From: Candidatus Thorarchaeota archaeon
Lineage (GTDB): Archaea; Asgardarchaeota; Thorarchaeia; Thorarchaeales; Thorarchaeaceae
Direction of reading: 5' to 3'
Assembly: GCA_008080745.1 (NCBI GenBank)
Contig: SHMX01000003.1
Location: forward strand, 1-32,000
DNA length: 32,000 nucleotides
Part shown: piece after piece, positions 4,068 through 32,000 of the stretch
Numbering within the stretch: the stretch's first letter is position 1
Layout of the letters: each line of letters starts with the position of its first letter
The notes under the pieces: model-generated
The model's database searches: none
What the model was told of the DNA's origin: nothing
The model's input: only the letters and a program-made list of their open reading frames with translations
Translations under genes and position numbers: made by a program

Positions 4068-5144
4068 CTATTTCCCTCCCTGAGCTGTGGGAGCTACTTC
4101 CCAGATTCCTGAGAGCTCCTTGAGTACATCTTTGATGCTGATATCACTGGGACAAGCGGCGGTACAACGACCACAACCCGTACATCCTAGAATGCCTTGA
4201 TCATGGGCAAAACCTCTCATCTTATGATAGAATCGATACTTGAAACGAGCTGCAGGTGACTCTCTAAAATTATGTCCACCAGCAACAAGTGCGAACTCTT
4301 GGAATAAGCAAGCATCCCATTTCCTTGTTCTATCTGCAGATGTTAGGGAGAGATCAAGGTCATCCACCACATCATAACAATAACAGGTTGGACAAACCAT
4401 AGCACATGCACCACAATTGACACAATCCTCTGCCATTTTATCCCAAAATTCATGATGGAATGATAGGTCAAGATATTCATTGATACCTTCAACATCTACC
4501 TCATGTGGTAATGACTCATTCTTGTGCTTGAGGGCTGCTTTGAATGCTCCAAAGTCTTCTGGTCCTGCCTCTTGGAAAATATCTCTAGCCATGTGAACTA
4601 GATGTTCACCTTTAGCAGTACCAACTTGTACATAGTATCTATCTCCAGATATTGGAGTCAAGAAGAGGTCATAACCTTCAACAACATGATGGGTATTCAT
4701 TGATCGACAGAAACCATATTCACAAGAATCTAAACAATTTATTCCAACAATAGTGGTTTTCTCCCGTCGTGCGAAATAGTATTTGTCTGTATATTCTCCG
4801 CCAAATACTCTATCAAGATGCAGAATTCCGTTAAGGTCACAGGAATGCACTGCCATCAATAAACGAGGACGCATTGCACGAAGCTCGTCTAGGGTATCCT
4901 CAACTTTATTTTCCTCAAGGTCAAAACTCATCATGACCTCGTTCTGCGGTTGGAAATATTTGCGAGGGGATAGAATGGTGCTATCATAATCCATGACAAG
5001 ATTGTCAGGATTATCTATCTTCCCGAAAACGTGCTTACTCCTTTTCTTTACTGGTCCGAATACATCATACTCGTTTGACGCAGCCTCTACGAGCTTTTTG
5101 ATGTCGGTCCGCTTCATTACATAGGGTGGACTCATAATTATCAT
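4068..5144 (-). CDS. hydB: Group 3b hydrogenase beta subunit (AsrA-like 4Fe-4S dicluster protein)
   Basis: CVNCGACAMVCPTCYC, WDAC and CTGCGRCTAACP. Its stop abuts the hydG ATG. Confidence 0.94.
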   Translation of the reverse strand: MIIMSPPYVMKRTDIKKLVEAASNEYDVFGPVKKRSKHVFGKIDNPDNLVMDYDSTILSPRKYFQPQNEVMMSFDLEENKVEDTLDELRAMRPRLLMAVHSCDLNGILHLDRVFGGEYTDKYYFARREKTTIVGINCLDSCEYGFCRSMNTHHVVEGYDLFLTPISGDRYYVQVGTAKGEHLVHMARDIFQEAGPEDFGAFKAALKHKNESLPHEVDVEGINEYLDLSFHHEFWDKMAEDCVNCGACAMVCPTCYCYDVVDDLDLSLTSADRTRKWDACLFQEFALVAGGHNFRESPAARFKYRFYHKMRGFAHDQGILGCTGCGRCTAACPSDISIKDVLKELSGIWEVAPTAQGGK

Positions 5145-16576: not shown

Positions 16577-18157
16577 ATGGGAGATTATACCGAACTAATG
16601 GGTGCTGCTGGGGCAGGTCATCTGGGGAATGTTGAACGATTGCTGAAAATGGGTCACGATCCAAATGCTAGAAGATTGTCAGGGAGAACACCGTTGATGT
16701 ATGCTGTGTTTAGTGGTTCAGTTCCAGTTGTGAAACGTCTGATTGAAGCTGGAGCGGACATTGATACTCAAGACAACGACGGATGGACTGCATTAATGGT
16801 TGCAATTGACCAGGGATATGAAGAAGTGGCGAAGATTCTCATTGAATTAGGTGCTGATGTAGACCGATCAACAAAAAGAAATCAGTCTCCACTCATGTTA
16901 GCTGCTGGAAGAAAACAACTTGATTTAGCTCGGTATATTCTCCAAAGTGGAGCAAATCCTCATCATGTAAGAGTAGATGGTTTCACGGTTTTGATGTCAG
17001 CCTGTCAAGGCAATCTCCTGCAACTAGTCCAAGATCTTATTGGAAAATACCAATGTGAGATAAATGCCACCGCAAATGATGGATGGAATGTCTTATCTTA
17101 TGCTCTTCAGTATGCAAGTGATGATTTGGTCATATATCTGATACAGAACGGAGCTAAGCCAAACTGGAATCACCCTAGCCAAGAAGAATTGATTACTGGA
17201 ATCATAAAGAGTCAGAAAACCAATCTCATCAGACTCATGCTTGAAAATGGAGCGGACATTGATGCGAAATTTGACAGGGGTTGGACACCACTGATGATTG
17301 CCGCTAGATTTGGAGATGAAGATATGGTCAAACTATTTCTTGACCATGATGTGGATATAAACGCAAGAACAGAGGAGGGATACACAGCACTCATGATTGC
17401 AGCGGAATTTGAAAGACCCCAATCAATAGATTTACTTCTTGAATATGGAGCAGATTTCAGAATAATAAGTGATACAGGATATACATGTCTAATGGCGGCT
17501 TCAATGGGTGGAATGAAAGAGTTTGTGCAATTTCTGATTGATAAAGGAGAAGATGTGAACCAAAGAAATCATGTGGATTGGACAGCACTCTTTTGTGCAG
17601 CAAAGATGGGAAATCGGGATGTCTTAGATCCTCTAATAGAAGCTGGTGCGAAAATTGACTTGAAGGATACAGATGGACAAACTCCTCTCTTCATAGCAAT
17701 AATGTACGATAAAGTGGAGTTTGCACTACGATTGATTGAAATCGGTGCGGATGTTAATATTATAGATAATGATGGTTGGTCACCACTAATTGCTGCCGCA
17801 TCACATGGTCAGCATGAGGTGTGCAACAATCTGATAGAGAAGGGAGCAGATACAAAACATCGAAGACCTAATGGGTATGGATTGTTTCTGGCAGCATCAA
17901 CAGGAGGTTTGACTAGTCTTGTCAAACGAGCACTCGAAGAGGGCAGTGAAATCAATGAAACAGATGAAGAACAGATTTCTGCGCTCATATATGCTGCAGA
18001 GAACGGTAACCTTGACACTGTGAAATTTCTGATTGAGAATGGTGCAGATCCAAATCTTACAGATGGAAATGGTCATACGGCATTAGAATGTGCCCGAGCT
18101 ACAAGAGAAAATGCAGTAGCTGAGTTCTTAGAAGGATTAGAGAGCAGACCAGATTAG
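16577..18157 (+). CDS. Ankyrin-repeat protein (15 full 33-aa repeats plus a partial C-cap)
   Basis: Recurrent G-x-T-[PA]-L-M-x-A...G...L[IL]xxGAD[IV][ND] units counted by hand; GGAGG RBS. Confidence 0.95.
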   Translation: MGDYTELMGAAGAGHLGNVERLLKMGHDPNARRLSGRTPLMYAVFSGSVPVVKRLIEAGADIDTQDNDGWTALMVAIDQGYEEVAKILIELGADVDRSTKRNQSPLMLAAGRKQLDLARYILQSGANPHHVRVDGFTVLMSACQGNLLQLVQDLIGKYQCEINATANDGWNVLSYALQYASDDLVIYLIQNGAKPNWNHPSQEELITGIIKSQKTNLIRLMLENGADIDAKFDRGWTPLMIAARFGDEDMVKLFLDHDVDINARTEEGYTALMIAAEFERPQSIDLLLEYGADFRIISDTGYTCLMAASMGGMKEFVQFLIDKGEDVNQRNHVDWTALFCAAKMGNRDVLDPLIEAGAKIDLKDTDGQTPLFIAIMYDKVEFALRLIEIGADVNIIDNDGWSPLIAAASHGQHEVCNNLIEKGADTKHRRPNGYGLFLAASTGGLTSLVKRALEEGSEINETDEEQISALIYAAENGNLDTVKFLIENGADPNLTDGNGHTALECARATRENAVAEFLEGLESRPD

Positions 18158-18500: not shown

Positions 18501-20027
18501 TCAGCCGAGCAAAAACGTAGCCGCTTCTACAGCATAATCCAACAAGATCCCAGGCATAATAAACAGAATAAGAACAGCTATGCTAGAAATTATGACCGCA
18601 ATCATTGGGATTCGGGGCAGATTCAGTTCATTAGCAGAATCGTCAGTACTCTTAGTGGAATGATCTCCATCCATGTACATCACTTTCAAGACACGAAGGT
18701 AATAACCCAGAGAGAAGACAGAATTTAGGAGAGCAATCAGAGCTAACCACCACATTCCTACTTCAACTGCACTCTGAAATAATATCAACTTTGACCAAAA
18801 TCCAGCAGTCAGGGGCATCCCAGCTAATGATAGAATAAGGACCGAAAAAGAAGCTGCTGCCATAGGAGCTTTTTTGCTAAGACCAATCAGATGATCATAT
18901 GTGATTTGCTTTCCAAGAACCACTGCCATGGACCAAATGAGAATGAAGCTACCAGTCTTCATTATTGCATGAATGAAAGCGTGAAAGAGAGCCGCTGCGG
19001 TTCCCAACTCGGTCCCTACCGCCATTCCAATTAATAGATACCCCATCATCGCGATACTGGAGTATGCTAACATTCTCATGATGTTTTTCTCAGCAAGTGC
19101 GAACAAGTTACCAATTATCATGGTCAATATTGAAACGATGACTAAGAGCGGCATCCATTCGATTCGAGCTGCAAACATTCCAACCATCAGAATCTGAATG
19201 AGTGCTGCAATACCTGCCTTCTTTGTAGCACCAGCAAGGTAAGAAGTGACACTGCCATCTGCTGTACTATAAGTATCAGGCACCCACATCCAACCAGGAA
19301 ACACGCCAATCTTAAACCCGAATGCAATGATGAACGTAATCAGAGCTAAAATGATAGTGTATGCCGCAGCAGGTGATGTTGCAGATTCCAACCAGATGGT
19401 GCTAATAGATGCTCCGACGGCAGATAACGACGTAACACCAGTGACACCAATAATGATTGCAATTCCAAATATCAGGAAGGTAGTTGAGAGTAGACCCATT
19501 ACGAAATATTTTGTTGCCCCATCTACAGCTCCTCGATGAGGACCAAGGGCTGCCAGTATATACGTTGGAGTTGACATCAATTCCCATGCTATGAAAAGAG
19601 CAACAAGATCCGTAGCCATTACAACCCATATAGCTCCTGCAAAGGACATTAACAAGAGAAAGTTGTAAGGCCCCTTATCACCTCCAAAAAGGGTAGAAGA
19701 CATTAGGACAAAAACAGCTACGACAAGAATCATGATGATAAAGAAATCTGACATGGGATTCCGGACAAAGAGACCACCAAAGGAACTTCCATAAAGTGTA
19801 GAATCAAAAACTAACATCCAAACTCCAGAAGTGATAACCCCAATAAAACTTAGCAAGAGAGGATTCCTTTTCATCCCCACTAATAGAATCAAGAGGGAAA
19901 AGCCGACCAGATTGAGAGCTGGCAGAGATCCGATCCATTCTACAGGAATGACTTGAAGTGCAATATCCCGAAGAGGAGCCAAGGCAAGTCTAAGTGAGTC
20001 TAAAATAGTTGATATTTGTATCATCAA
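18501..20027 (-). CDS. nuoN: Complex I-like antiporter subunit N
   Basis: FIAWELMSTPTY, KYFVMG, GFKIGVFPG..WVPDTY, RMLAYSSIA, GFWSKL and YYLRVLKVMY. Confidence 0.9.
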   Translation of the reverse strand: MMIQISTILDSLRLALAPLRDIALQVIPVEWIGSLPALNLVGFSLLILLVGMKRNPLLLSFIGVITSGVWMLVFDSTLYGSSFGGLFVRNPMSDFFIIMILVVAVFVLMSSTLFGGDKGPYNFLLLMSFAGAIWVVMATDLVALFIAWELMSTPTYILAALGPHRGAVDGATKYFVMGLLSTTFLIFGIAIIIGVTGVTSLSAVGASISTIWLESATSPAAAYTIILALITFIIAFGFKIGVFPGWMWVPDTYSTADGSVTSYLAGATKKAGIAALIQILMVGMFAARIEWMPLLVIVSILTMIIGNLFALAEKNIMRMLAYSSIAMMGYLLIGMAVGTELGTAAALFHAFIHAIMKTGSFILIWSMAVVLGKQITYDHLIGLSKKAPMAAASFSVLILSLAGMPLTAGFWSKLILFQSAVEVGMWWLALIALLNSVFSLGYYLRVLKVMYMDGDHSTKSTDDSANELNLPRIPMIAVIISSIAVLILFIMPGILLDYAVEAATFLLG

Positions 20028-21541
20028 GGTACACCTCCAACAATGAAGTCTGTTGACGTTCGTATAAGATCTAAAATAAGATCAGGCCAGACTCCAAGAA
20101 GAATCACGGGAATCAACATGATAATAGGAGCTATAAGGTCTGACCACGGAGCATCAACAACATCCTTCTCAGGGTCCGGATCACTGAAAACGATTCGATT
20201 TAGTGTCCAGAGTAAATATCCAACCGTGAGAAAAATACCAAAGGCGATCACTGGAGCCCATATGTAGACCACTACAGCTCCAAATAATATCAATGCCTCT
20301 GCTACAAAACCGCTCAGGCCTGGAAGACCAAAGGCAGCAAAAGATGCTAGTATCAAGACCGTTGACATCTTAGGAGCCCTTTCCATTAACCCATGAATCT
20401 CTGGAATCTCCCGGGTTCCTGATGCATGCTTGAGTTGTCCAGCCATGATAAACATCACAGAGATTATCACGCCATGAGATACCATCATGAATACAGCCCC
20501 TTGAATAGCCAAGCTGGTGCCTACCGCAACTCCAAGAAGGACCCATGCCATGTGATTGATGGAAGTATAGGCAACCATTGATTTCATGTCGGTCTGAGCC
20601 AATGCTGTAAAGGCTGCATAGATACAAGTGAATATCGCAAGAATAGCAAAGGGAATACTTAGTCTTACAAAAGCGTCAGGAATAAGCCAAAGACCCAATC
20701 GAATGAAACCATATCCACCCATTTTCAAAAGAATGCCTGCAAGAATAACTGAACCAGGCGTGGGGGCTTTCACATGAGCCCATGGAAGCCAGTTGTGCAA
20801 TGGAAACACTGGGAGTTTCACGCCAGCACCCATAAAAATAGCGAGCGCGAATCCGATCTGAATATCTGCTGGTAGCCCCATCTCTCTAAGTAATAGCATG
20901 TTGAATGTATTGGGAGTTGATACAAAGAAGAGAACGAAGAATCCAACTAGCATCACTGCGGAACCAAGATGAGTATAGATGAAGAATTTGACCGCTGCGT
21001 GTTCACTGCCTTCTTCACCCCAACGACCGATGATGAAAAACATTGGTATCAGAACTAGCTCCCAGAATATGAAGAATCCAATCAAATCCAGTGACATGAA
21101 TACCCCTAAAAGTCCGGATTGGAGTAGGAGTAAGAGTGCATAATACAGTCCTTTTGATTTGTTAATGTGATTCGAACTGATTGTTGCGATAAACACAACT
21201 AGATTAGCGAGGATAACCATTGCTACAGAAATTCCATCAACACCAAGATAAATCTGAAATGTGATATCTGAGCTACCAGTAGATATAGTTGCGAAAGTAT
21301 ACTCCCATAGAAATTGCATTCCAGCAAAAGAGTCGCCTTCAGTGTAGGTGGTGTTGATTGTTAAGGCGAGGATAAAAGCTAAAACGAGTTCTATGAAGGT
21401 AATGATAAGAGTGATGAAACGTGACCCTCTCGACCCGGCGATATAAGCGATGATTGTACCCAACAAGGGTAGAAATACCATTAATGGGAGTATATCATAT
21501 GGTAAAAGGGCTAAGATGTCTTGAGCTAGATCCAGTTGCAT
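20024..21541 (-). CDS. nuoM: Complex I-like antiporter subunit M
   Basis: GVDGIS, FFIFWELVL, VKLPVFPLHNWLPWAHVKAPTPGSVILAGILLKMGGYG, SHG and GFVAE. Confidence 0.92.
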   Translation of the reverse strand: MQLDLAQDILALLPYDILPLMVFLPLLGTIIAYIAGSRGSRFITLIITFIELVLAFILALTINTTYTEGDSFAGMQFLWEYTFATISTGSSDITFQIYLGVDGISVAMVILANLVVFIATISSNHINKSKGLYYALLLLLQSGLLGVFMSLDLIGFFIFWELVLIPMFFIIGRWGEEGSEHAAVKFFIYTHLGSAVMLVGFFVLFFVSTPNTFNMLLLREMGLPADIQIGFALAIFMGAGVKLPVFPLHNWLPWAHVKAPTPGSVILAGILLKMGGYGFIRLGLWLIPDAFVRLSIPFAILAIFTCIYAAFTALAQTDMKSMVAYTSINHMAWVLLGVAVGTSLAIQGAVFMMVSHGVIISVMFIMAGQLKHASGTREIPEIHGLMERAPKMSTVLILASFAAFGLPGLSGFVAEALILFGAVVVYIWAPVIAFGIFLTVGYLLWTLNRIVFSDPDPEKDVVDAPWSDLIAPIIMLIPVILLGVWPDLILDLIRTSTDFIVGGVP

Positions 21542-23737
21542 TTAGATTACCCCCAGCCAAATTAGTGCAATAATCGCCATCAACCCCACACCAAAAATAA
21601 TCACCGAAACATAATCATTGATCCTACCCGTTTGGGCATGGAGACTGACTTCGGAGGCATCAATACTTCTAGAGGAAACACCCTCGGCAAATCCATCAAC
21701 TACATTATCATCAAACCAGCGAATTCGCCTAGATAATCCTATAGCCAGATCTGCTGAACGAAAGTCAATTCCATCTATAATACGATTGTCAATCTTTTCC
21801 CTCCACCAACTGGCAAAATTGAGGAATTTGTTCAGAATCCAATAATATCCCTCATTGATATACCAACGATGTTTCAAGAAATCGTAGATCTTTCTTTTGA
21901 TGCCCTTTTCTGGAATGATAGTGTTGCCCTTTTCAGCCCCTTTAATGTAGATGAGATATGCGGGAAATCCACCAATAGCTAACGCACCTAATGTAATTGT
22001 AAATGGAATCAGACCAGGTAAGGTCAGCTTCACCAATAACATTTCGACCATCGTATCTGACCAGAGAGATAGTGTAAGTGCACCTTCCTCCAATAGTATC
22101 CCCTGAACAAATGGATATATTGCAAATGCAATGATAGTAAATGCAGCAAGTATGTAAAGAGGAATCATCATAGCTGGACCAGGATCATGAGGTGCTTTAT
22201 GGCTCTCTTCATGAGTTTCTTGTGAGTGAGATGCATCAGTATCTTCAAACTTTGATGATCCGTAGAAGGTCATTCCCATTAGCCGTAAACTGTAGAAAAT
22301 GGTACATGCTGCTGCAATAACAGCAAATGAAAAGAGAATCCAACCAATTGGCTCATGCAGTGCTAGCTCATAAGTGTATTCGATAATCGAGTCCTTAGAC
22401 CAAAATCCAGAGAAGGGAGGGATTCCAGCTAACGCTAGAACGCCAATCCACATAACAATGAAGGTCTTCCGCATATGTTTTTTGAGACCTCCCATCTTCG
22501 TCATGTATTTGGTGTGTAAGGCATGAATCACCCCTCCTGATGCCAAGAATAGTAACGCTTTGAATGCCCCGTGACTGATTACGTGAAGAATACTTGATAG
22601 GTAGGCATGTTCGTAATGGGCCAATACACCGCCCACTCCAATTGCCAACATCATGTATCCCAATTGACTAAGGGTTGAGAATGCAAGCACCTGTTTCAAT
22701 TCATTAGAAACCATACCCATTGTAGCTGTCATTAGTGCAGTAATCGCTCCAACGATGGCCACTATTGTGAAAAAGGGTATTGCAGCCTCAAATCCAACGA
22801 TCTGTAAAGGATTGAAGAACGACTCCGCATGACTTGAGCCAGCTGCATCCACCATGGTGACTAAAAATCGAGCACTGATGTAAACACCCGCTTTGACCAT
22901 TGTTGCAGCATGGATAAGTGCTGAAACTGCGGTAGGCCCTGCCATAGCCTCAGGGAGCCATATTTGTAGAGGAGCTTGACCAGATTTTCCGATTGCGCCC
23001 ATAAACAAGAGTAAGAAAGTTGGAACCAACATTCCAGTGGTGGCCATTGCACTCCACCAGTGCTGAGCATCATGGGACATACCAGTGAAGGAGAAAGTTC
23101 CAGTGAATACGAAGAGAAGTAGAATGCCAGCGAGCATGAAGGCATCACCAATACGAGTTACAATGAATGCCTTTGTTCCACAATGGGTATTGTATTCTCC
23201 TTCAGTGTCAAATTGTAAGAGGGGGTTATTATATTCAACATCAGTTGGGTCTGTTTCAGGGGGATTCCGCTTATCATTCCAAAAGCCAATGAGGCCATAA
23301 GAACAGAAGCCCATAATTTCCCAGCCGATAAAAGCAATCAGCAGACTATCACTCAGAACCAATGTGAGCATTCCTCCACCGAAAGCCAACATCAAGAAGA
23401 AGAATCGATCTCGGTCCTCCTCATGGGCCATGTATTCAGTACTATAAACGTAAATCAAAAAACAGAGGGTGCTTGCAAGTACCCCCATAATGATAGATAA
23501 TGGGTCTAATAGTATTGTGAAGTTCAGATTTAAAGAATCAATCCAAATCCAAGAAGTAATAGTAGCGGGGTTGTTAATCTCAAACAATAGAGACCAACAA
23601 AGAATCATTGATAGGCCCATGAATAACGATGGAGTCCAATCCCTTAGTTTCTCGTTGAATCTTCCAATCACTGGTACTAATAGAGAGCCCGCTAAGGGTA
23701 GAACAATGATGAGATAGTATGGTAGTCCAAATAGCAT
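21542..23737 (-). CDS. nuoL: Complex I-like antiporter subunit L
   Basis: DPLS, YSTEYM, FIGWEIMGFCSYGLIGFW, GKSGQAPLQIWLPEAMAGPTAVSALIHAATMVKAG, HGAFKALLFL, GFWSKD, plus the C-terminal lateral helix and final TM. Confidence 0.93.
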   Translation of the reverse strand: MLFGLPYYLIIVLPLAGSLLVPVIGRFNEKLRDWTPSLFMGLSMILCWSLLFEINNPATITSWIWIDSLNLNFTILLDPLSIIMGVLASTLCFLIYVYSTEYMAHEEDRDRFFFLMLAFGGGMLTLVLSDSLLIAFIGWEIMGFCSYGLIGFWNDKRNPPETDPTDVEYNNPLLQFDTEGEYNTHCGTKAFIVTRIGDAFMLAGILLLFVFTGTFSFTGMSHDAQHWWSAMATTGMLVPTFLLLFMGAIGKSGQAPLQIWLPEAMAGPTAVSALIHAATMVKAGVYISARFLVTMVDAAGSSHAESFFNPLQIVGFEAAIPFFTIVAIVGAITALMTATMGMVSNELKQVLAFSTLSQLGYMMLAIGVGGVLAHYEHAYLSSILHVISHGAFKALLFLASGGVIHALHTKYMTKMGGLKKHMRKTFIVMWIGVLALAGIPPFSGFWSKDSIIEYTYELALHEPIGWILFSFAVIAAACTIFYSLRLMGMTFYGSSKFEDTDASHSQETHEESHKAPHDPGPAMMIPLYILAAFTIIAFAIYPFVQGILLEEGALTLSLWSDTMVEMLLVKLTLPGLIPFTITLGALAIGGFPAYLIYIKGAEKGNTIIPEKGIKRKIYDFLKHRWYINEGYYWILNKFLNFASWWREKIDNRIIDGIDFRSADLAIGLSRRIRWFDDNVVDGFAEGVSSRSIDASEVSLHAQTGRINDYVSVIIFGVGLMAIIALIWLGVI

Positions 23738-23748
23738 CTTATTTCACC

Positions 23749-25257
23749 TCATGGAATAAGCCCACTCACTCCCTCTAACCCCGCAAATATGATATCCACT
23801 GCGATACCGGGAAAGATTCCAAAGAACACGATCAACACAGCAAGTACCACCATGGGAATGACCATCGATTGTGGTGCCTCTGAAGTGTCTTCAAGCTCTC
23901 GTGGATGAGGGCCAAGAAAGACCTTCCAAAGAAACCGGAGCATATACCCAGCACTTACAATTGAACTAGTAACTGCCAAGATACTTAGAAGAATAAATTC
24001 AGGTCGTAGAATAATTGCGCCGGATATCTGTGCAGCATCGAAGCCGCCTAGAAACATCATCCACTCACTAGCAAAACCAGAAAGGGGTGGACTTCCAGCT
24101 ATACTTAGGGCACCAATTGCTGCTGTAAATGCAGTAAGAGGCATTTTATTTGAGAGACCCCCCATTTTCGTGATATCACGTAAACCAGTCTGATGAATGA
24201 CTGCTCCGGCGGTCATAAACAGCAACCCCTTTGAGAAAGCATGATTGATAAGGTGAAATAGCCCCCCAGTGACACCTACGGTTGTATAGACACCGAGAGA
24301 GAAGAGTATGTATCCCATCTGAGAAACTGAAGAATATGCTAGGAGTCGTTTGATATCTATCTGTGCCAGTGCCATAAAACCGCCATAGAACATCGTAAGG
24401 ACACCAATAGCTGCAATCCAGAATGCTAGAGCAGCGGCAGCAGGTCCGAGTAAAATAGTACCAAATCTCACTAATGCATAAGCACCAGTTTCAATCATAG
24501 CTCCAGATAGAAGAACCGAGATGGGAGTTGGAGCTTCGGCATGAACAGGGGGTAACCACCAATGTATTGGAAAGACTGCCATCTTTACCAAGAAACCAGC
24601 AGCCATTAGAATAAAGATAATCTTGAGTAAATCAGTAACAGTGGAGCCCATTAATGTATCTTGGATAGTTTGTAATTCAAATGATCCCGTAAGCATGTAA
24701 AGTAGTCCAAATCCAACAAGGATACAGAGAGCACCTGATTGAGTATAAAGCCAAAATTTCAGTGCAGTTCTCTTTCTTGTTTCCGGGAGACCCCAGAATA
24801 AAATGAGGAAGTAACTTGGAACCAGCATTATCTCCCATGCAATAAAGAATTCTATGAGATTCGTTGCAAGAACAACCCATTGCATACCCATAAGGAAGAA
24901 GAGTTGATTTGCAAAGAAAGTTGGTCTGTTCTTGGTGTGTTCAGTATATCCTACAGCATATACTACTGAGAGAAAACCAAGCACAACAATAGCAAAAACT
25001 ATGGGAAATGAGACACCATCAAGAAACAGTCCGAATTCTCCAAATACTTCAGACCATGTAGCTGACTCTTTCACAACACTTCTTTCAACTATAATTCGGT
25101 AGAAGGGGGGGAGCATGAATACTAAGGATAAAAATGAAAATCCTACCGCAACCTTTCCTGCTGAGTGTTCAAGCTTAGACTTTAAGAGGTAGATTAGTAA
25201 AGCACCTATGAATAGAACGGCCAATGAACTTGCCATGAAGGGCATTTCGATTTGCAT
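23749..25257 (-). CDS. Additional (fourth) antiporter-like subunit, NuoM/MrpD/HyfB family
   Basis: LDGVS, FFIAWEIM, VKMAVFPIHWWLPPVHAEAPTPISVLLSG, KRLLAYSSVSQMGY, NHAFSKGLLF and GFASEW. Preferred start is ATG 25257 (TAATG overlap with the nuoI stop, AGGAGG RBS); the ORF track gives 25281. Confidence 0.88.
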   Translation of the reverse strand: MQIEMPFMASSLAVLFIGALLIYLLKSKLEHSAGKVAVGFSFLSLVFMLPPFYRIIVERSVVKESATWSEVFGEFGLFLDGVSFPIVFAIVVLGFLSVVYAVGYTEHTKNRPTFFANQLFFLMGMQWVVLATNLIEFFIAWEIMLVPSYFLILFWGLPETRKRTALKFWLYTQSGALCILVGFGLLYMLTGSFELQTIQDTLMGSTVTDLLKIIFILMAAGFLVKMAVFPIHWWLPPVHAEAPTPISVLLSGAMIETGAYALVRFGTILLGPAAAALAFWIAAIGVLTMFYGGFMALAQIDIKRLLAYSSVSQMGYILFSLGVYTTVGVTGGLFHLINHAFSKGLLFMTAGAVIHQTGLRDITKMGGLSNKMPLTAFTAAIGALSIAGSPPLSGFASEWMMFLGGFDAAQISGAIILRPEFILLSILAVTSSIVSAGYMLRFLWKVFLGPHPRELEDTSEAPQSMVIPMVVLAVLIVFFGIFPGIAVDIIFAGLEGVSGLIP

Positions 25258-25688
25258 TACCTGAACCTCCTTCCTCGCCATTCTAACGGTTCTCTATCTA
25301 ATGTCGTAATTTCATCCGGTCCATAAATCAGGTCTTCTCTGTTTTCAGCACTGATATCGACAACTTTAGTATGATAAAGCGCATTGAATCTACAGGCCTG
25401 AACACATAAACCGCAGAAAATGCATCGTGTATAGTCAAAATAGAGAGCGGCATCCTTGTTGTATTTTTGATCCATAACATCAATCCTGATTGCTACGACC
25501 GGACAGACACGTACACATTGTTTGCACGCTGTGCAATTTTCTCGCACATGTATATGTCTTCCACGGGTACGTTCAGGGTATTCTCGATCTTCAAAAGGAT
25601 AAAAGTATGTGAAAGGTCTCTTGAAAATCTGTCTGAACACATGCCTTAGAATTCTGAAGATATCGCCTAGTGTTGAGAAGAATCCCAT
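25257..25688 (-). CDS. nuoI: Complex I-like subunit I (2x[4Fe-4S])
   Basis: T..YPFE...RGRH, CTACKQCVRVCP and CIFCGLCVQACR. Confidence 0.92.
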   Translation of the reverse strand: MGFFSTLGDIFRILRHVFRQIFKRPFTYFYPFEDREYPERTRGRHIHVRENCTACKQCVRVCPVVAIRIDVMDQKYNKDAALYFDYTRCIFCGLCVQACRFNALYHTKVVDISAENREDLIYGPDEITTLDREPLEWRGRRFR

Positions 25689-25693
25689 TCATA

Positions 25694-26824
25694 TCAACCT
25701 CCAATCATCAGTAACCCAGCTAATCCGGGCAGATACACAATAGCCAGCATGGCAAGTACGACATTGAGTATCGAAAGTGGCAGTAGATATTTCCAACAAT
25801 ATTCTACAATCTGATCAGGTCTCAATCTATAGAAAGAAGATGTGACCACGATATAAAGGAAGAACACTATCAAGAACTTGATAATGAAGTTCATAGCAGG
25901 GGGTAGGAACGGAAGTCCGTGAAAGCCTCCAAGGAATAATGCAACCATCATAGCACTGTAAAGCATCTGTTCTGCAAATTCAGCAAAATACGTCATGGTG
26001 AAATAGATTCCTGAGAATTCAGTTCGCCATCCAAAAATGATTTCTGAATCAGCCACAGGGGAATCAAAAGGAAAAGTACCTACAGATGCAATTGAGCTTA
26101 CCATAAATGTAGCTAAATTGATGGGTAACAACACAACAAACCAAACATTACTCTGGGCTTGAGCAATGCCCATCAAACTAAGAGAACCAGCCAGAAGTGT
26201 CGGACCAACTGAAGAGATAATCATTGGAATCTCTGCTGCGAACTGATTGTTGGCTGCTCTGAATCCACCTATTAGAGAATACTTGGAACCTGAAACCCAT
26301 CCTGCAAGAAGAGCAATCACTGGTACAGCAGTTAAGAATGCAAAAATCAGAACCAAGCTTACAGATAGATCAGCAATGAACCAAGAGGGAGACCAAGGTA
26401 TGAAAGCAAAGGGTAAGAGCACAATTACCAAGAGAAGGCATGGAAGAAATCTAAACATCCAGCGTTTTGCTTTATCAGGAATTATGGTCTCCTTTGAAAC
26501 TAGTTTAATCGCATCTGCGAAGAGTTGAAAACCACCATATTTGCCAATATGAGTAGGACCTCTCCGATCTTGTATTCTGCCCCACATCTTTCGTGTGAAC
26601 CAGACTGCAAAGATAATACCTAGCACTATGAATACCAAGCCTGGGAATATGATAGCTCTGAAGAGGAACCAGAAGTTTCCAACCACTGCTGCCCATACAA
26701 ACACAAAGATACCCCAGACGCCATTAAATATCCAGACTATGATTCCATGCAACCACATGATTATATCGTATAACCAAGTAGGTATTCCAGCCAACCATTG
26801 GAAGAAATCTATCTGCAACGTCAC
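25694..26824 (-). CDS. nuoH: Complex I-like subunit H with long N-terminal extension
   Basis: RKMWGRIQDRRGP, GGFQLFADAIKLVSKE, KYSLIGGFRA, PFD.P.A..E...G..TEFSG and R.RPDQ...CWK. GTG start with a GGAGG RBS. Confidence 0.92.
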   Translation of the reverse strand: MTLQIDFFQWLAGIPTWLYDIIMWLHGIIVWIFNGVWGIFVFVWAAVVGNFWFLFRAIIFPGLVFIVLGIIFAVWFTRKMWGRIQDRRGPTHIGKYGGFQLFADAIKLVSKETIIPDKAKRWMFRFLPCLLLVIVLLPFAFIPWSPSWFIADLSVSLVLIFAFLTAVPVIALLAGWVSGSKYSLIGGFRAANNQFAAEIPMIISSVGPTLLAGSLSLMGIAQAQSNVWFVVLLPINLATFMVSSIASVGTFPFDSPVADSEIIFGWRTEFSGIYFTMTYFAEFAEQMLYSAMMVALFLGGFHGLPFLPPAMNFIIKFLIVFFLYIVVTSSFYRLRPDQIVEYCWKYLLPLSILNVVLAMLAIVYLPGLAGLLMIGG

Positions 26825-26832
26825 GCTTCCTC

Positions 26833-27966
26833 CTATCTATCCCACCATCCAGGATATGGATCTAGACTGCCAAATATCACAATGAAATCAGCAAACTTGT
26901 TTCCGGGGACAAGATGCTTCAATGAATAATACGAGTTGAAACAAGGACCGCGTATCTTTGCACGATAAGGGGTCTGTGCTTTATCCATAGTTCTAAGATA
27001 GAGTGATGTGACTCCTCTTGTTCCCTCCACACGTCCATAAGCTTCTCCCTCAGGAAGTCGATTAACTTTGCCACGAGCTTTTCTTTCGTAAATTTCACCC
27101 TCGGGAACTTGGGGTAACAATTGACGAATTATATCTACTGAGGTCTCTATTTCTAAAAATCTCTGAACCATCCTGTCATAAGCATCACTCTCACCAGGAT
27201 GATCTTCATTGGTATAGGTGGGAACTTCCCAGTCAGCCATATCATAAGTGAGATTTTCATCTGGAGAATCCTTTCTGAGATCCATTGGAACACCACAGGC
27301 CCGGATATTTGGTCCACTGATTCCCCAACGCAATCCTTGGTTTGCATCAAATCGACCTATTCCTTTAGTTCGTACTTTGAATGTGGGACTTCTCAGTAGC
27401 ATATCACGAAACTTGGGCATCCGCTCTTCCAGACGTTGAATGGCTCTATCTAACTTGGACAGAAATTTATCTGTAAAATCGTACTTCACTCCCCCCGGAG
27501 TATTATAGGATACAGCATGTCTAGACCCAGTCAATTCTTCAAAAGCATCAAGGAAGAACTCTCTGTCAACCCAAGGCCAAAGTAGCATTGTAAATAATCC
27601 TAGTTCTGCTGCGAATTGCCCCCACCAGAACTGGAGACTATGAATTCGACTCGCTTCCATCATAATTGTTCGCATGATTTTAGCACGGTCTGGTACATCT
27701 ATTCCAGCAATTTTCTCAACTGCTGATACATACGGATATTCAGCAAGAAATGCCTCAAGCATGCAAAGCCGTTCCATTATTAGTGCGCCCTGCCGGAAAT
27801 CTCTAAACTCTAAACACTTCTCAGCAGATCGATGGAAATAACCAGCATTGGGATCACATTCCACTATGTAATCTCCTACTAGCGTGAGTTTTGCTGCCCA
27901 GCCATGCGCTGAAACGTGCTGAGGACCAAACCAGATTTCAGTTGCCTCTTCAAGAACGTCTTTCAC
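26833..27966 (-). CDS. nuoD: Complex I-like subunit D (49-kDa family; not a NiFe catalytic subunit)
   Basis: FGPQHVSAHG, GYFHRSAEK, EASRIHS, EELTGSR, GEAYGRVEGTRG and PYRAKIRGP. Both Ni-binding CxxC pairs are incomplete (RLCMLE; DPYPGWWDR). Confidence 0.9.
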   Translation of the reverse strand: MKDVLEEATEIWFGPQHVSAHGWAAKLTLVGDYIVECDPNAGYFHRSAEKCLEFRDFRQGALIMERLCMLEAFLAEYPYVSAVEKIAGIDVPDRAKIMRTIMMEASRIHSLQFWWGQFAAELGLFTMLLWPWVDREFFLDAFEELTGSRHAVSYNTPGGVKYDFTDKFLSKLDRAIQRLEERMPKFRDMLLRSPTFKVRTKGIGRFDANQGLRWGISGPNIRACGVPMDLRKDSPDENLTYDMADWEVPTYTNEDHPGESDAYDRMVQRFLEIETSVDIIRQLLPQVPEGEIYERKARGKVNRLPEGEAYGRVEGTRGVTSLYLRTMDKAQTPYRAKIRGPCFNSYYSLKHLVPGNKFADFIVIFGSLDPYPGWWDR

Positions 27967-28493
27967 TCGTCCTCACCTCCCTCTGAGGGTCCGGGACGTC
28001 GTTGAGTTAAGCCAGATTCATGGATTCTACTTCTATCAATCTCAAAACTTTTCCTCAAAGGGAATTCTCCCTTCAATTCATCTGGAAGTAGCAATAATCT
28101 TAGGTCTGGATGCCCGGAAAAATTAATTCCAAACATCTCATGAGTTTCTCTTTCATGCCATTCCATGCCGGGAAATATATCAGCTATAGTAGGGACTTCT
28201 GGAGAATCAGCTGGCAGCTTGAGAACTATCTTACAAAGAACTCTACTATTTCGAGACCAGAAATAATAGATAATTTCAAACCCATCTTCTTCAAAATCAA
28301 TACCTATTAGATTTTCAGGAAAGATATCCGAATACAGTCTATCTAGCATCTCAACAAGTTCTCTAAGCTGTTCCGGAGTAATACGAATTTGGACGGTTTC
28401 TTTTCCGATGGCTCGAGTTTTGATGGTATCATCTACCTGTTTCAATTCGTGAATCAGTAAGGCTCCAGATTTTCCTTGTTCTGAATCAGACAC
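27963..28493 (-). CDS. nuoC: Complex I-like subunit C (30-kDa family)
   Basis: PTIADIFPGMEWHERETHEMFGINFSGHPDLRLLLLP...FPLRKSF. Confidence 0.92.
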   Translation of the reverse strand: MSDSEQGKSGALLIHELKQVDDTIKTRAIGKETVQIRITPEQLRELVEMLDRLYSDIFPENLIGIDFEEDGFEIIYYFWSRNSRVLCKIVLKLPADSPEVPTIADIFPGMEWHERETHEMFGINFSGHPDLRLLLLPDELKGEFPLRKSFEIDRSRIHESGLTQRRPGPSEGGEDE

Positions 28494-28806
28494 CTGTAAT
28501 CTCCTCCTGTCTTACTGGTTGTCCAAGATCTACAGTTCCATATCTACGATGATACATTAGCATGAGGACCATTGCAAGAGCAGTATGTGCAGCTGCTATA
28601 GCTATGATAATGATAGTTAGACCTTGACCTGTGAAGGTGAAAGGAGAATTGTAGAGAGCAAGAGCTACCAATGCGATGGTCACTCCATTGCCAATTATTT
28701 CTGCCCCAATGAGTACTCTGATGAGATTTCTTTTCACCATCATCCCGTATACTCCAAGGCCAATTAGTATGAAAGCCAAGACCAAATACCACGAAAGTGG
28801 AATCAT
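28486..28806 (-). CDS. nuoK: Complex I-like subunit K
   Basis: Three TM helices, GLGVYG...KRNLIRVLIGAEII.NG...GQ...IAAA. Confidence 0.9.
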   Translation of the reverse strand: MIPLSWYLVLAFILIGLGVYGMMVKRNLIRVLIGAEIIGNGVTIALVALALYNSPFTFTGQGLTIIIIAIAAAHTALAMVLMLMYHRRYGTVDLGQPVRQEEITGV

Positions 28807-29414
28807 TGTTCTTCCTCCTGGGTTTCAGTATATGCTGGATGTGTTTCTGCCTCGATACCAAATTCACCTTTTATAGGTTCGAGACGTTCAGCCTTCTCCA
28901 TCTTCATAATCACAACGGCACCCACCAAAGCAGTGAGAATTATTAGCGCCGTCATTTGCACATATATTCCATGAGACCCCCATAGCCATTTAGCTAGCTC
29001 CTCTAGATTTTGGGAGAGATTGATATTTTCGCTAACAAAGCTTTCAGGCCATGGGAACAAGAGGGCTAAAATTCCAGAGAGAATCATCACAACTGATGTA
29101 ATCAGAACACCAATACGTTTTGCCCGGGATGTTGGAAATACTTCAAGAGTGCTATCCTGTGCACGTGGGAGCAATAACACACCAAAGATAATCAACGCAC
29201 TTATTCCACCAGTATAGACAGCAATTTGCATTCCAGCAATAAATGGTGCTTCTAGAAGCAGATAGAAGCCAGCGACAACAGAAGCCATCATGCCAAAGAA
29301 AAATGCTGCATAGACAATATCTTCGTGTTCTAAAGCAAGATATGCAAGTATTAGTACTAATCCAGCTAGCAGAATGAATTCAACCTGTTCAAAGAGGGTT
29401 TCAAAACCTTGCAT
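28803..29414 (-). CDS. nuoJ: Complex I-like subunit J
   Basis: IVYAAFFF...VAGFYLLLEAPFIAGMQIAVYTGGISALIIFGVLL, and C-terminal WLW...LTALVGAVVI. Confidence 0.9.
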   Translation of the reverse strand: MQGFETLFEQVEFILLAGLVLILAYLALEHEDIVYAAFFFGMMASVVAGFYLLLEAPFIAGMQIAVYTGGISALIIFGVLLLPRAQDSTLEVFPTSRAKRIGVLITSVVMILSGILALLFPWPESFVSENINLSQNLEELAKWLWGSHGIYVQMTALIILTALVGAVVIMKMEKAERLEPIKGEFGIEAETHPAYTETQEEEQ

Positions 29415-29417
29415 TCT

Positions 29418-29858
29418 CTAAGCCTCCTCATGTGCCGAAGATGATTTACTCGATGCCCTAGCCTTCTGATACAGTTCTACCGTTTCAGAACCTGAAAGGT
29501 ATGTTTCGGGAAGTCTTTTGATAACATACCATATTCCCACCATAAAAATTCCAGTGAAAAGAATGAATTGCCAGACAGTAATTTCTGTGAATCGCAGAGA
29601 AGATGATGATAGTAACCATAGAAATGCTCCTAGAACATCAACGACAAGAAAGAGTATCGTATAGGTCAAATAGTTATAAGGAAAGGAAACTCGTGCCGGG
29701 CCAATGGGTTCCTCACCACACTCGTAAGTAGAGGTCTTTTCTGAATTCTGAAGCACATGTGGTCGTAATACCCAAGATGCAAAGAGCATTACAATTACAA
29801 GGACAGCGGCAAGCATAGCCCAGATTAGAACTGGGATGAAGTCGATGAAGAGCCTCAT
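29418..29858 (-). CDS. nuoA: Complex I-like subunit A
   Basis: KTSTYECGEEPIG.A...Y..Y.ILFLVVDV. Preferred start is ATG 29858 (GGTGG RBS); the ORF track gives GTG 29876. Confidence 0.9.
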   Translation of the reverse strand: MRLFIDFIPVLIWAMLAAVLVIVMLFASWVLRPHVLQNSEKTSTYECGEEPIGPARVSFPYNYLTYTILFLVVDVLGAFLWLLSSSSLRFTEITVWQFILFTGIFMVGIWYVIKRLPETYLSGSETVELYQKARASSKSSSAHEEA

Positions 29859-29899
29859 TTTTTCCACCAAGTGCACACATTTCTCATATGACCAAGACT

Positions 29900-29970
29900 A
29901 ATCACCGCATTCGCTGTGATTGAAATCGTTCAGTCACTGAAGGAGCAAGTATCGTAGTCTATCATAAAAA
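29900..29970 (-). promoter_or_regulatory. Putative promoter/operator region of the complex I-like operon
   Basis: TATA-like TTTTTATG on the - strand (29963-29970), perfect palindrome TTCAGT-C-ACTGAA (29929-29941) and inverted repeat AATCAC-N10-GTGATT (29900-29921). Confidence 0.5.
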
Positions 29971-29989
29971 CGTTCTGTCTTTTTCATCT

Positions 29990-30005
29990 CGAAAGTCTTA
30001 TAGAG
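29990..30005 (+). promoter_or_regulatory. Archaeal BRE/TATA promoter for the 30044 gene
   Basis: CGAAAGTC-TTATAGAG about 40 nt upstream of ATG 30044, which has an AGGTG RBS. Confidence 0.55.
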
Positions 30006-30043
30006 AACGTTGTTAGAAACAATCATTAACGTAGGTGTCTATT

Positions 30044-30397
30044 ATGGAAAAAGATAGCCATGTTGGAGCATTTCATTACATCGCACTGATTCTAGGAATC
30101 CTTACTCTCACAATATATGCATGGTGGATTTTTTCTGTAGGTAGCTGGGTGCTTAATTTTATGGAAACCCTGTTTATTGCAGCTGGAATTTCCATGATCC
30201 CTATCACACTCCTGATAGGCAAGTCAGATACTCGGTCTGGTCGAGTACTATTCACCATAATCTCTGCTGCTCTTGGAGGTGTTCACGGTTATCTGGTCTT
30301 GGCTTTCTTTCCAACTACTGGTGCAATGATGTTTCTCCTTTTTGGTTTCGGACTTCTAATGACTGCAGCTTCTATAACATGGATACAAAAGGGATAA
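30044..30397 (+). CDS. Small four-TM membrane protein, unknown function
   Basis: Four hydrophobic segments separated by GKSDTRSGR-type loops, with its own promoter and RBS. The ORF track starts at GTG 30035. Confidence 0.8.
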   Translation: MEKDSHVGAFHYIALILGILTLTIYAWWIFSVGSWVLNFMETLFIAAGISMIPITLLIGKSDTRSGRVLFTIISAALGGVHGYLVLAFFPTTGAMMFLLFGFGLLMTAASITWIQKG

Positions 30398-30407
30398 GCT
30401 AAAAGTC

Positions 30408-31412
30408 CTAGCTATCATCTTCTAATGGTGAGAACTGCACTATTGCCCAAGTGATATCGGTTGAAATAACTGGAAGACCATCAATCCCAATATCAAAGAT
30501 CTCGCTTGAAACAGTTGGTTCTACCGACGAAACATCTTCAAACAGGATTTGAGTTTCAAGCAATGGTGAAGACATGGATAGTAATCGGTTCTTGAATCCG
30601 AATTCCATATTGTGTTCTATGAGAACATCTGCATTGGCATCTCCATTATCTGGAAAGAAAAATGTAAGAAAGTAAGCTACACCACCAAGACATCTTACCA
30701 ATTCATTGAGAAATTCTTCACTACTGGTTATATTGGTCAATCCCATATTGGTCGTAATGACCTCTACTGATTTTTCTTTGAAAGGCATCTTTCTAGCATC
30801 AAATGCAATAAGGCTTACTTTCTCATAGATACCGAAATGCTCCAATCTATCCTTATTTCTCTGAAGAATACTTGGACTGATATCACTCAAGATGACAGGA
30901 TTTTCCAATTCAGAGAATAATTCAGCGAATCCACCCATTCCAGATGCAATATCAATAATGACGCCTGTTTTATCAGAGAGTAATTTTTGTAGCTGTGTTT
31001 TCTTTTCTTGATATGCTTGAGTATAAGAACTAGTATATAGGTCCCTCACGGCTTCAGCTCTAATTTCTCTTGCAGTATCATAGTCTCCTCGCTCATCAAG
31101 AATCATTGAATGTAAGAGTTTGTCTGCGGGATTCAAATTATCCAAATCAGTTTGCATGAGTTTTCGTTCATATTCAGGATTGCTACGCAATGCCTTTGAT
31201 AGATTACTTTGCACAACTTTCCAAAAATCTTCATCATTTGATGCATCTAAAAGAAAAATAGCAATACCATTCTTTACAAAATAAGATTTATGACATGCGA
31301 TACAAGAAACCTCAGCATCAATAATCCGATGATCTGTTTCTTTTTGAATATCCCATGCTAAAGAATCATGACAGATAGGACAATAAAGCAAATTTTGAAT
31401 AGATTTTAGCAT
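30408..31412 (-). CDS. Class I SAM methyltransferase with N-terminal Trm112-like Zn-knuckle
   Basis: LLYCPICHDSL...CIACHKSYFVKNGIAIFL, motif I IIDIASGMG, LSDISP, and FDARKMPFKEKSV. Preferred start is ATG 31412; the ORF track gives 31502. Confidence 0.85.
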   Translation of the reverse strand: MLKSIQNLLYCPICHDSLAWDIQKETDHRIIDAEVSCIACHKSYFVKNGIAIFLLDASNDEDFWKVVQSNLSKALRSNPEYERKLMQTDLDNLNPADKLLHSMILDERGDYDTAREIRAEAVRDLYTSSYTQAYQEKKTQLQKLLSDKTGVIIDIASGMGGFAELFSELENPVILSDISPSILQRNKDRLEHFGIYEKVSLIAFDARKMPFKEKSVEVITTNMGLTNITSSEEFLNELVRCLGGVAYFLTFFFPDNGDANADVLIEHNMEFGFKNRLLSMSSPLLETQILFEDVSSVEPTVSSEIFDIGIDGLPVISTDITWAIVQFSPLEDDS

Positions 31413-31564
31413 GAATATCAAAGATTGAAGATATTCGAAATCTAAAATAGATTTACAACTAAGCAAAATAAAGAAAATAGCCCATTCTATTTTAGAAAAC
31501 AATTCAGTAATTCACTCGTAAAGATTAAGAGGGCTCGTTAATAATTCTAATTTGAGATTTGAGA

Positions 31565-31801
31565 ATGAATGCCTCCAAACTAATGGCTATATTAACTGGA
31601 ATACTCGGATGTGTAATTCTAGCGATTAGCGGCTGGCTAATACTCTTTGGAATTCAATGGGCAATATGGAATGCACCATTATCAGGTCATCCTCCAACTG
31701 ATATTGCATGGTTAGTCAATTCTGCAGTACCGCTAGGTTTTTTTCTCTTAGGACTAGGTTTTATGATGATACTATGGAGTAAACCATTAAGTGTGCAATA
31801 A
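31565..31801 (+). CDS. Small two-TM membrane protein
   Basis: Two hydrophobic segments around a W/P-rich loop (WAIWNAPLSGHPPTDIAW); ATG 31565. Confidence 0.65.
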   Translation: MNASKLMAILTGILGCVILAISGWLILFGIQWAIWNAPLSGHPPTDIAWLVNSAVPLGFFLLGLGFMMILWSKPLSVQ

Positions 31802-31929
31802 TCTCTGCAATCGGTTCTTATTTCATAAAAGAATGATATGATAGTGAAGAACCCAGATAGATAAAAAAGCAGAGGTGAATACTTTAAGATATTATTACCT
31901 CTAACAAAATTCCATCGAGAGAGTCATCT

Positions 31930-32000
31930 ATGAGTATGAGAGAAAAATTTCAGAAAGTCAGAAATGATAAGCTGTTCGATGAAATAAAAGAACATATGAT
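31930..32000 (+). CDS. 5' end of a gene truncated by the window edge (MSMREKFQKVRNDKLFDEIKEHM...)
   Basis: Open frame from ATG 31930 to the window end, with a TATA-like CTTTAAGA at 31882-31889. Confidence 0.45.
   Translation, partial: MSMREKFQKVRNDKLFDEIKEHM

Follow-up and report, generated by a model that had tools for sequence, protein, structure and literature searches.

A tyrosine-less NuoD lineage in a complex-I-like operon of Thorarchaeota and the possible nature of its substrate site

What happens at the substrate site of a complex-I-like ion pump in which all but one of the nickel ligands of the [NiFe]-hydrogenases and also the quinone-ligating tyrosine of complex I are missing? The question is raised by a nuoD-like gene within the first 32,000 nucleotides of contig SHMX01000003.1 of a Candidatus Thorarchaeota archaeon (GCA_008080745.1), the stretch of DNA that we refer to as the window. 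The genome is 3.16 Mb long, has 41% GC and is 98% complete, and most of the nearest proteins carry the label Candidatus Thorarchaeota. A preliminary description, made from the sequence alone, drew attention to a GPQHVSAHG loop with both histidines and to the segments ERLCMLE, FWWG, LWPW and SLDPYPGWWDR, and all of these are present in the translation of positions 26833–27966 on the minus strand. Two of its placements need adjustment: the interval given for ERLCMLE (27751–27777) contains the motif with one codon too many on each side, and that given for the C-terminus (26836–26862) spans only the DPYPGWWDR part of the longer segment (Table 1).

Residue equivalences were taken from HMMER alignments to solved structures, including Thermus Nqo4 and Pyrococcus MbsL. 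Cys68 corresponds to Nqo4 D86 and to the first nickel-binding cysteine (Cys1) of the [NiFe]-hydrogenases, Met69 to the quinone-ligating Y87 of the RxDY motif (which is not a nickel-ligand position), Glu71 to the position of Cys2, Tyr371 to V403 and to Cys3, and Trp374 to the position of Cys4, usually occupied by Glu or Asp; Asp369 corresponds to D401, and His21 and Glu121 to H38 and D139. The alignment thus agrees with the earlier proposal that only the first hydrogenase cysteine survives and that Met occupies the tyrosine position. The RxCxxC and DPCxxC nickel motifs of group 4 enzymes are absent, with Cys68 alone left. The FpoD pattern (Cys1 and Tyr87, then Cys3), which is present in the representatives P0139 and P0182, is not seen, and neither is the MbsL/MbxL pattern in which Cys1 and Cys3 are both kept, since Tyr371 stands at the position of Cys3. 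Canonical NuoD proteins read RxDY and D[IL]V, whereas here Tyr87 is replaced by Met, Asp86 by Cys, V403 by Tyr, and the acidic residue at the Cys4 position by Trp. The His–acid pair H38–D139, whose role in quinone-reducing complex I has been described (PMC4758237), is retained as the invariant His21 and Glu121, and is found in two sister groups as well. The protein lies under every NCBIfam NuoD cut-off (NF004739, 326.7 vs 360; TIGR01962, 271.2 vs 459; NF008974, 272.7 vs 522), and it scores 250.9 bits with the FpoD model NF040602, the cut-off of which is 600.

The architecture of the complex is nonetheless complex-I-like (Nuo/Fpo/NDH-1), with A, B, C, D, H, I, J, K and antiporter-like L/M/N subunits all present, B as a fusion to a flavin adenine dinucleotide (FAD) dehydrogenase, and with a second NuoM-like subunit among four PF00361 proteins. 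The small subunit has a tandem CC and two more cysteines, and the membrane arm consists of NuoA/H/J/K/L/M/N and is not Mrp-type, unlike those of MBS. NuoH matches Escherichia coli NuoH with 180 bits, and there are no MbsM or MbhM chains among its matches at E<=1e-20; NuoB, NuoH and NuoI are all partners of the complex I type. NuoD itself resembles NuoD/Nqo4/49-kDa/NdhH proteins in its GPQHxxxHG loop with both histidines, in the acidic residue at the D139 position, in the D401 equivalent, and in its predicted fold. The AlphaFold2 model (predicted local distance difference test score, pLDDT, 92.6) matches both complex I NuoD and MbsL with template modelling (TM) scores of ~0.9 in a Foldseek comparison with the Protein Data Bank (PDB), which as a class test therefore gave no discrimination.

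For the phylogeny, 150 representatives from an exhaustive search, together with the earlier matches, were sorted by motif; comparison with named proteins was through the PDB HMMER alignments, and unnamed representatives were labelled by motif and NCBIfam. An IQ-TREE analysis (LG+C20 with posterior mean site frequencies, PMSF) of 66 selected rows (8 NiFe outgroup, 31 intermediates, 9 Fpo-like and 18 canonical, with near-duplicates and fragments left out) recovers Fpo and canonical NuoD as one clade (support 99/91) with the window protein outside it. The clade containing the window protein (100/100) is joined by the sister groups (100/100) and then by P0122 (92/77), and this lineage belongs, with weaker support (92/81), to a group made up of tyrosine-less intermediates, MBS-like sequences among them. 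A FastTree analysis of 184 rows agrees in topology and again places the window protein outside Fpo and Nuo. Because of this placement, we conclude that the window protein represents an independent tyrosine-less lineage and is not a decayed canonical NuoD. By motifs, cut-offs and tree it is neither a hydrogenase, an FpoD, an MbsL nor a canonical NuoD, in keeping with the original suggestion that it fits no known class.

Conservation was assessed in 60 NuoD orthologs that are 72–91% identical. Per-column identity to the query averages 0.79 and 38% of the columns are invariant, and these include H17, H21, W23, C68, E71, E121, D369, Y371 and W375; position 69 is Met in 58 of the 60 and Leu in the other two, and W374 is kept in 58/59. 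Because the pocket residues vary little or not at all although only 38% of columns are invariant, the motif set is more than chance and drift is excluded, which is also the outcome of the check on CML and GWWDR conservation that the preliminary description had proposed. That description took its view to be refuted if the motifs were common in characterised quinone-reducing NuoD clades, and this is partly so: loss of Tyr87 is not unique, having been reported for NuoD of Sulfolobus, Nautiliales and Desulfurobacteriales (Degli Esposti 2015, PMC4758237). The two sister groups (~50% identity) share H21, M69, E71, E121 and Y371 with the window protein, with Ser replacing Cys68 and with W374 and W375 not present. 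Tyr at position 371 is confined to Tyr87-less sequences, where it occurs in three lineages, and is found in 0/109 Tyr87-bearing sequences. Tryptophan is abundant, at 10.9 per protein in the window clade vs 3.4–5.5 in the other groups. The clade-specific residues are W23, W115, W214, W246, W374 and W375, so that roughly half of the tryptophans first listed as extra are indeed so (W23, W115, W374 and W375), but the others are ancestral: W114 and W130 are family-wide and W132 is the hydrogenase state.

The genome also encodes a NuoD homolog on another contig (C11) with the motifs RICGIC and DPCFSC, and since it belongs to a true group 4 [NiFe]-hydrogenase it provides an internal control for the hydrogenase state. 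The six-gene hydrogenase locus (L014:2303–6436) has the order A-B-C-D-H-I with nickel motifs intact; its large subunit carries a C-terminal extension past DPCFSCTDR, and no antiporter-like subunit is nearby. In other Asgard lineages, NuoD forms the C-terminal part of a ~670-residue fusion with a NuoB domain (many matches are 663–676 aa); one of these, P0123, has NuoB at residues 140–278 and NuoD at 303–668, with the motifs QRICVLDG and SFDNCPADHDR.

The nuoD gene lies in a minus-strand operon of 11 genes with the order nuoA-J-K-C-D-H-I-M'-L-M-N, and the open reading frame (ORF) map and Pfam matches reveal no nuoB or NuoEFG genes within it. The only fitting NuoB is encoded further along the same contig (C3, 36560–38500), 6.7 kb upstream of the operon, as the C-terminal domain of a 646-residue protein. 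The first 450 residues of this protein are a GlcD-type FAD dehydrogenase (PF01565 and PF02913), and the two domains are joined by a hydrophobic, amphipathic linker. The NuoB domain contains a tandem-cysteine N2 motif (LGCCMVD) and two further cysteines, and it scores ~150 bits to NdhK, PSST and Nqo6 vs 109 to MbsJ and 99 to MbhJ. We considered whether the NuoD tryptophans are offset by the small residues behind its CC (GAAG, where PSST has MMH), and dropped the idea because the NuoB of the sister clade already has small residues there, with no such tryptophans in its NuoD.

A full-length FAD–NuoB fusion is present in every sampled genome of the family that bears the clade NuoD and in none without it, mostly on one contig and 3–6 kb apart; genera g4, g5 and g11 have neither. 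In a relative (G005), a single contiguous cluster contains genes for a polyprenyl synthase, a MenA-like prenyltransferase, a CCG iron-sulfur protein, FAD–NuoB and a four-transmembrane (4-TM) protein, followed by nuoAJKCDHIM'LMN, and MenA-like orthologs adjoin FAD–NuoB in at least 15 genomes. Neither the NuoD ortholog nor the fusion is interrupted by a stop codon in any family genome where it occurs, and examination of relatives, G005 among them, showed the 11-gene operon to be intact. The two halves are separated only in the window genome, where an insert of ~6 kb (window 29877–32000 and L013:1–4091, the latter being 32001–36091 of the contig) lies between nuoA and the 4-TM and FAD–NuoB genes; it codes for a UbiE-like methyltransferase, a TPR-like protein and a histidine kinase, and is absent in G005, where the halves are adjacent. 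In the sister clade the NuoB ortholog is a standalone protein of 189 aa that is encoded away from the operon. Its operon on a JGI metagenome contig is likewise without nuoB, and directly upstream of nuoJKCDHIM'LMN (L015:1–1826) there are genes for a 483-residue CCG/Fer4 protein and a membrane protein, truncated by the contig end, that we read as putatively HdrE/NarI-like. A genome of the same order (G112) has a 40%-identical NuoD with Cys1 and Cys3, and a standalone nuoB in the order J-K-B-C-D.

Table 1. Positions of the nuo genes, of the NuoD motifs and of an adjoining gene in the window
Feature	Coordinates	Strand	Remarks
antiporter-like N	18501–20027	-	PF00361
antiporter-like M	20024–21541	-	PF00361
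antiporter-like L	21542–23737	-	PF00361
antiporter-like M'	23749–25281	-	PF00361
nuoI	25257–25688	-	two 4Fe-4S motifs; likely ferredoxin docking subunit
nuoH	25694–26824	-	nearest solved relative E. coli NuoH; TRK for complex I ERK; PFDSPVADSE in loop between transmembrane helices 5 and 6
nuoD-like gene	26833–27966	-	377 aa; PF00346, E=3e-63; subject of this analysis
stop codon of nuoD	26833–26835	-	
C-terminal relic SLDPYPGWWDR	26836–26868	-	Asp369, Tyr371, Trp374, Trp375
LWPW	27571–27582	-	W130 family-wide; W132 common to NiFe hydrogenases
helix with FWWG, Gln117 and Glu121	27604–27630	-	Gln117 = Thermus T135; Glu121 = Thermus D139, partner of loop His
FWWG	27619–27630	-	W114 ancestral; W115 clade-specific
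L1 relic ERLCMLE	27754–27774	-	residues 65–71; Cys68, Met69, Glu71
beta1-beta2 loop GPQHVSAHGW	27898–27927	-	residues 14–23; His17/His21 = Thermus H34/H38, kept; Trp23 clade-specific
nuoC	27963–28493	-	PF00329
nuoK	28486–28806	-	PF00420; second membrane Glu to His (AIAAAH)
nuoJ	28803–29414	-	PF00499
nuoA	29418–29876	-	PF00507; nuoJ directly next, no nuoB between
UbiE/MenG-like methyltransferase	30408–31502	-	N-terminal Trm112-like zinc ribbon; just upstream of nuoA

Elsewhere in the window there is a four-gene cytosolic [NiFe]-hydrogenase cluster (1169–5144, minus strand) laid out as in group 3b (sulfhydrogenase-like), with a large and a small subunit, an FAD/NAD-binding subunit with a DHODB-type Fe-S domain, and an Fer4_22 subunit. 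An ORF of 2095 residues (5863–12150, minus strand) has no Pfam match at E<=1e-5, and a 526-residue protein (16577–18157, plus strand) is formed by ankyrin repeats over nearly its whole length (Ank_2, E=5e-103).

As to what the site does, we tentatively favor, with a probability of roughly 45%, the view that it is functional and proton-coupled and serves a quinone-type carrier that is prenylated and possibly non-standard. This reading draws on the constrained pocket, the His–acid pair, the N2-type cluster, the complex-I-type NuoH, and the linkage to prenyltransferase and flavoprotein/CCG genes. NuoD would provide the substrate site of a complex-I-like ion pump specific to Asgard archaea of the Thorarchaeia type. 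Because NuoEFG were not found and no protein in the genome has a family match to FpoF/FrhB, the input for F420H2, electrons would enter from ferredoxin at NuoI, pass to the N2-type cluster in the four-cysteine NuoB domain, and reach a carrier bound between NuoB, NuoD and NuoH. The carrier would be a lipid-soluble, prenylated aromatic compound made by the cassette of MenA-like prenyltransferase, polyprenyl synthase and geranylgeranyl reductase (GGR), and might be either menaquinone built on a scavenged head group or a molecule with a non-canonical head group. His21 and Glu121 would act as proton donor and coupling trigger. Because Cys1 and Cys3 both ligate nickel in the hydrogenases, residues 68 and 371 should be adjacent, and Tyr371, beside Cys68, may take over the hydrogen bonding of Tyr87; W23, W115, W374 and W375 may shape an aromatic, less acidic pocket for the head group. 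The GlcD-like FAD dehydrogenase of the fusion would pair with the CCG iron-sulfur protein, and dehydrogenases of this kind normally feed membrane carriers. The same carrier would probably shuttle, in either direction, between a hydroxyacid (D-lactate-type) dehydrogenase and the NuoD site, and the complex might perform ion-pumping ferredoxin oxidation or gradient-driven ferredoxin reduction. The extra pump subunit would suit either the large ferredoxin-to-carrier drop or a gradient-driven flow in the opposite sense, in which ferredoxin is reduced by a lactate-type substrate. The preliminary description had raised the idea of a non-standard acceptor or donor and called for a search for quinone and prenyltransferase genes; the idea fits the genomes, in which the MenA-like cassette is found in synteny and the known menaquinone head-group pathways are not.

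Several observations weigh against a carrier site. The canonical quinone-ligating tyrosine is missing, and NuoD lies outside the Fpo and Nuo clade, beside MBS-like proteins. The menaquinone head-group pathways were searched for in 41 family genomes: for the futalosine route, MqnA and MqnD are found in 0/41 and no MqnE exceeds the cut-off in the window genome, and for the classical route, MenD exceeds the cut-off in 0/41 and the MenB matches of the window genome are at crotonase level only, with none over the cut-off. The MenA-like protein itself scores just below the NCBIfam MenA cut-offs. No quinol oxidase of the NrfD or NarI type is encoded in the low-GC part of the genome; the single NrfD-family match is on contig C14, which at 64.5% GC vs 41% for the genome is likely a contaminant, and there is no NarI-type match. 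Contigs C14, C15, C17, C18 and C19 are all short and are probably contamination, because their GC contents of 62–65% differ from the 39–43% of the rest; the polysulfide-reductase-like system tied to the C14 NrfD may therefore not belong to the Thorarchaeal organism. Several carboxylates of the E-channel are substituted, with NuoH reading TRK for ERK, the second membrane Glu of NuoK replaced by His, and NuoA reading VDVL for FDxE, and the ion-coupling path may differ from that of canonical complex I. Finally, genus g13 has neither a NuoB domain nor a Nuo complex, yet it carries the MenA cassette together with the CCG protein and the linker-bearing FAD protein. In its genome G140 (L028:5445–11941), the genes encode GGR, polyprenyl synthase, the MenA-like protein, the CCG protein and an FAD protein of 499 residues whose end falls right after the amphipathic linker; this last represents the flavoprotein module either before fusion or after secondary loss. 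Since g13 carries both without a Nuo complex, the flavoprotein module and the prenyl cassette are a unit of their own that is fused onto the pump in most genera, and so it may be the flavoprotein, not NuoD, that the cassette serves.

As the main alternative, the pump could be wired without quinone. Cys68, Tyr371 and the tryptophan cluster would then form a plug or a protein relay, the partner of N2 would be the fused flavoprotein with the CCG protein, and the complex would be an ion-motive hydroxyacid:ferredoxin oxidoreductase whose NuoD pocket holds no exchangeable carrier. Cys68, W23, W115, W374 and W375 all occur in the same clade as the FAD–NuoB fusion, the sister clade has Ser68, none of these four tryptophans and the standalone NuoB, and the family genomes yielded no canonical pathway for a quinone head group; other Asgard complex-I-like enzymes have also been argued to be unable to admit quinone (preprint 10.1101/2024.07.04.601786). 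The co-occurrence, however, amounts to a single evolutionary event, the cassette of MenA-like protein, polyprenyl synthase and GGR is kept beside the fusion, the proton-donor pair His21–Glu121 is invariant, and NuoH, which forms the quinone tunnel, is complex-I-like. Moreover, the flavoprotein is fused to the N-terminus of NuoB through the amphipathic linker. In complex I structures, this end of NuoB is at the membrane surface and far from N2, so by analogy direct transfer from FAD to N2 would be unlikely. On balance we think it unlikely that the site works without quinone.

A more specific form of protein wiring, in which Cys68 and Tyr371, at the two former positions of terminal nickel ligands, act together with the clade-specific tryptophans as a redox relay for quinone-free electron exchange with the flavoprotein, maybe as a cross-linked Cys–Tyr cofactor by N2, appears highly improbable to us. 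If true, the complex I scaffold would have given rise to a hydroxyacid:ferredoxin oxidoreductase that is coupled to an ion gradient and does without quinone, and this in the archaea most closely related to eukaryotes.

We regard as very unlikely that the site supports chemistry of the MBS/Mbx type, with sulfane sulfur, polysulfide or another non-quinone acceptor reacting at or near the proximal cluster as in Pyrococcus MBS, although MbsL of Pyrococcus furiosus (PDB 6U8Y) is the top sequence match among solved structures (6u8y_L, E=6e-58; TM 0.91) and lies on the same side of the tree, within the 92/81 group. MbsL (motifs RICVPE and LDNCPP) has also lost the NiFe site while keeping Cys1, has an acidic residue at the Cys2 position, and lacks Tyr87. 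It differs in retaining Cys3 where the window protein has Tyr371, and in its loop, GPQHMATENF, which is without the second histidine, such that the His–acid pair kept here is absent in MbsL. MBH, MBS and complex I are told apart by the cysteine motif of the NuoB-type subunit, and both MbsL cysteines, which are located together ~12 Å from the proximal cluster, are not catalytic (PMC7684303). The partner of MbsL, MbsJ, has the shortened three-cysteine motif at the proximal cluster that defines MBS catalysis and works with an Mrp-like membrane arm, whereas the NuoB domain here has four cysteines with a tandem pair, the arm is Nuo-like, and both NuoB and NuoH are far closer in score to complex I and NDH-1.

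A degenerate site was the other possibility raised in the preliminary description; its residues would then be historical, in a complex that only moves ions or is decaying. In spite of the lost tyrosine, the substituted E-channel carboxylates and the unlinking of nuoB from the operon in the window genome, this reading is already disfavored to the point of being scarcely credible by the invariant pocket, by the intact operon and stop-free genes of the relatives, and by the strict co-occurrence of NuoD with a dedicated NuoB fusion.

Among known systems, Chadwick et al. in 2018 reportedly described a '2M' complex I with an extra NuoM, which the four antiporter-like subunits recall; to our knowledge, described 2M enzymes have canonical NuoD and a standalone NuoB. 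The F420H2:methanophenazine oxidoreductase of Methanosarcina is similarly an archaeal 11-subunit-type complex without NuoEFG, and its FpoD keeps Cys1. FpoD proteins (P0139 and P0182, with 723 and 640 bits to NF040602) read GPQHPMQPGPF, DRICYLVA and SMDGCTSEADR, and thus have Tyr87 and Cys3 and lack H38 and D139 (see also PMC4758237), in all of which the window protein differs. The Fpo-like complex of Methanomassiliicoccales (Lang et al. 2015), in the part of PMC4758237 that relays it, is without an input module and has a NuoD with H38 and D139; its membrane carrier is given there as unknown, and cooperation with a CCG-domain protein (HdrD) is proposed. That account reports no flavoprotein–NuoB fusion for it.

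Neither this NuoD type nor the FAD–NuoB fusion turned up in a literature search of incomplete coverage, and a 2024 preprint on Asgard archaea (10.1101/2024.07.04.601786) treats nickel-containing group 4 variants only. The window complex is a member of a lineage-wide Thorarchaeal variant. In the customary account of how complex I evolved, the four nickel-binding cysteines were lost step by step and the quinone tyrosine was gained afterwards. The window clade represents another route, in which a NuoB and a NuoH of the complex I type and the His–acid pair are combined with a tyrosine-less NuoD that retains one cysteine. Its tyrosine sits at a different former ligand position, and the pump is wired to a flavoprotein dehydrogenase by gene fusion. 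The finding points to a prenylated electron carrier in organisms without known menaquinone pathways, and the energy metabolism of Asgard archaea bears on models for the origin of eukaryotes.

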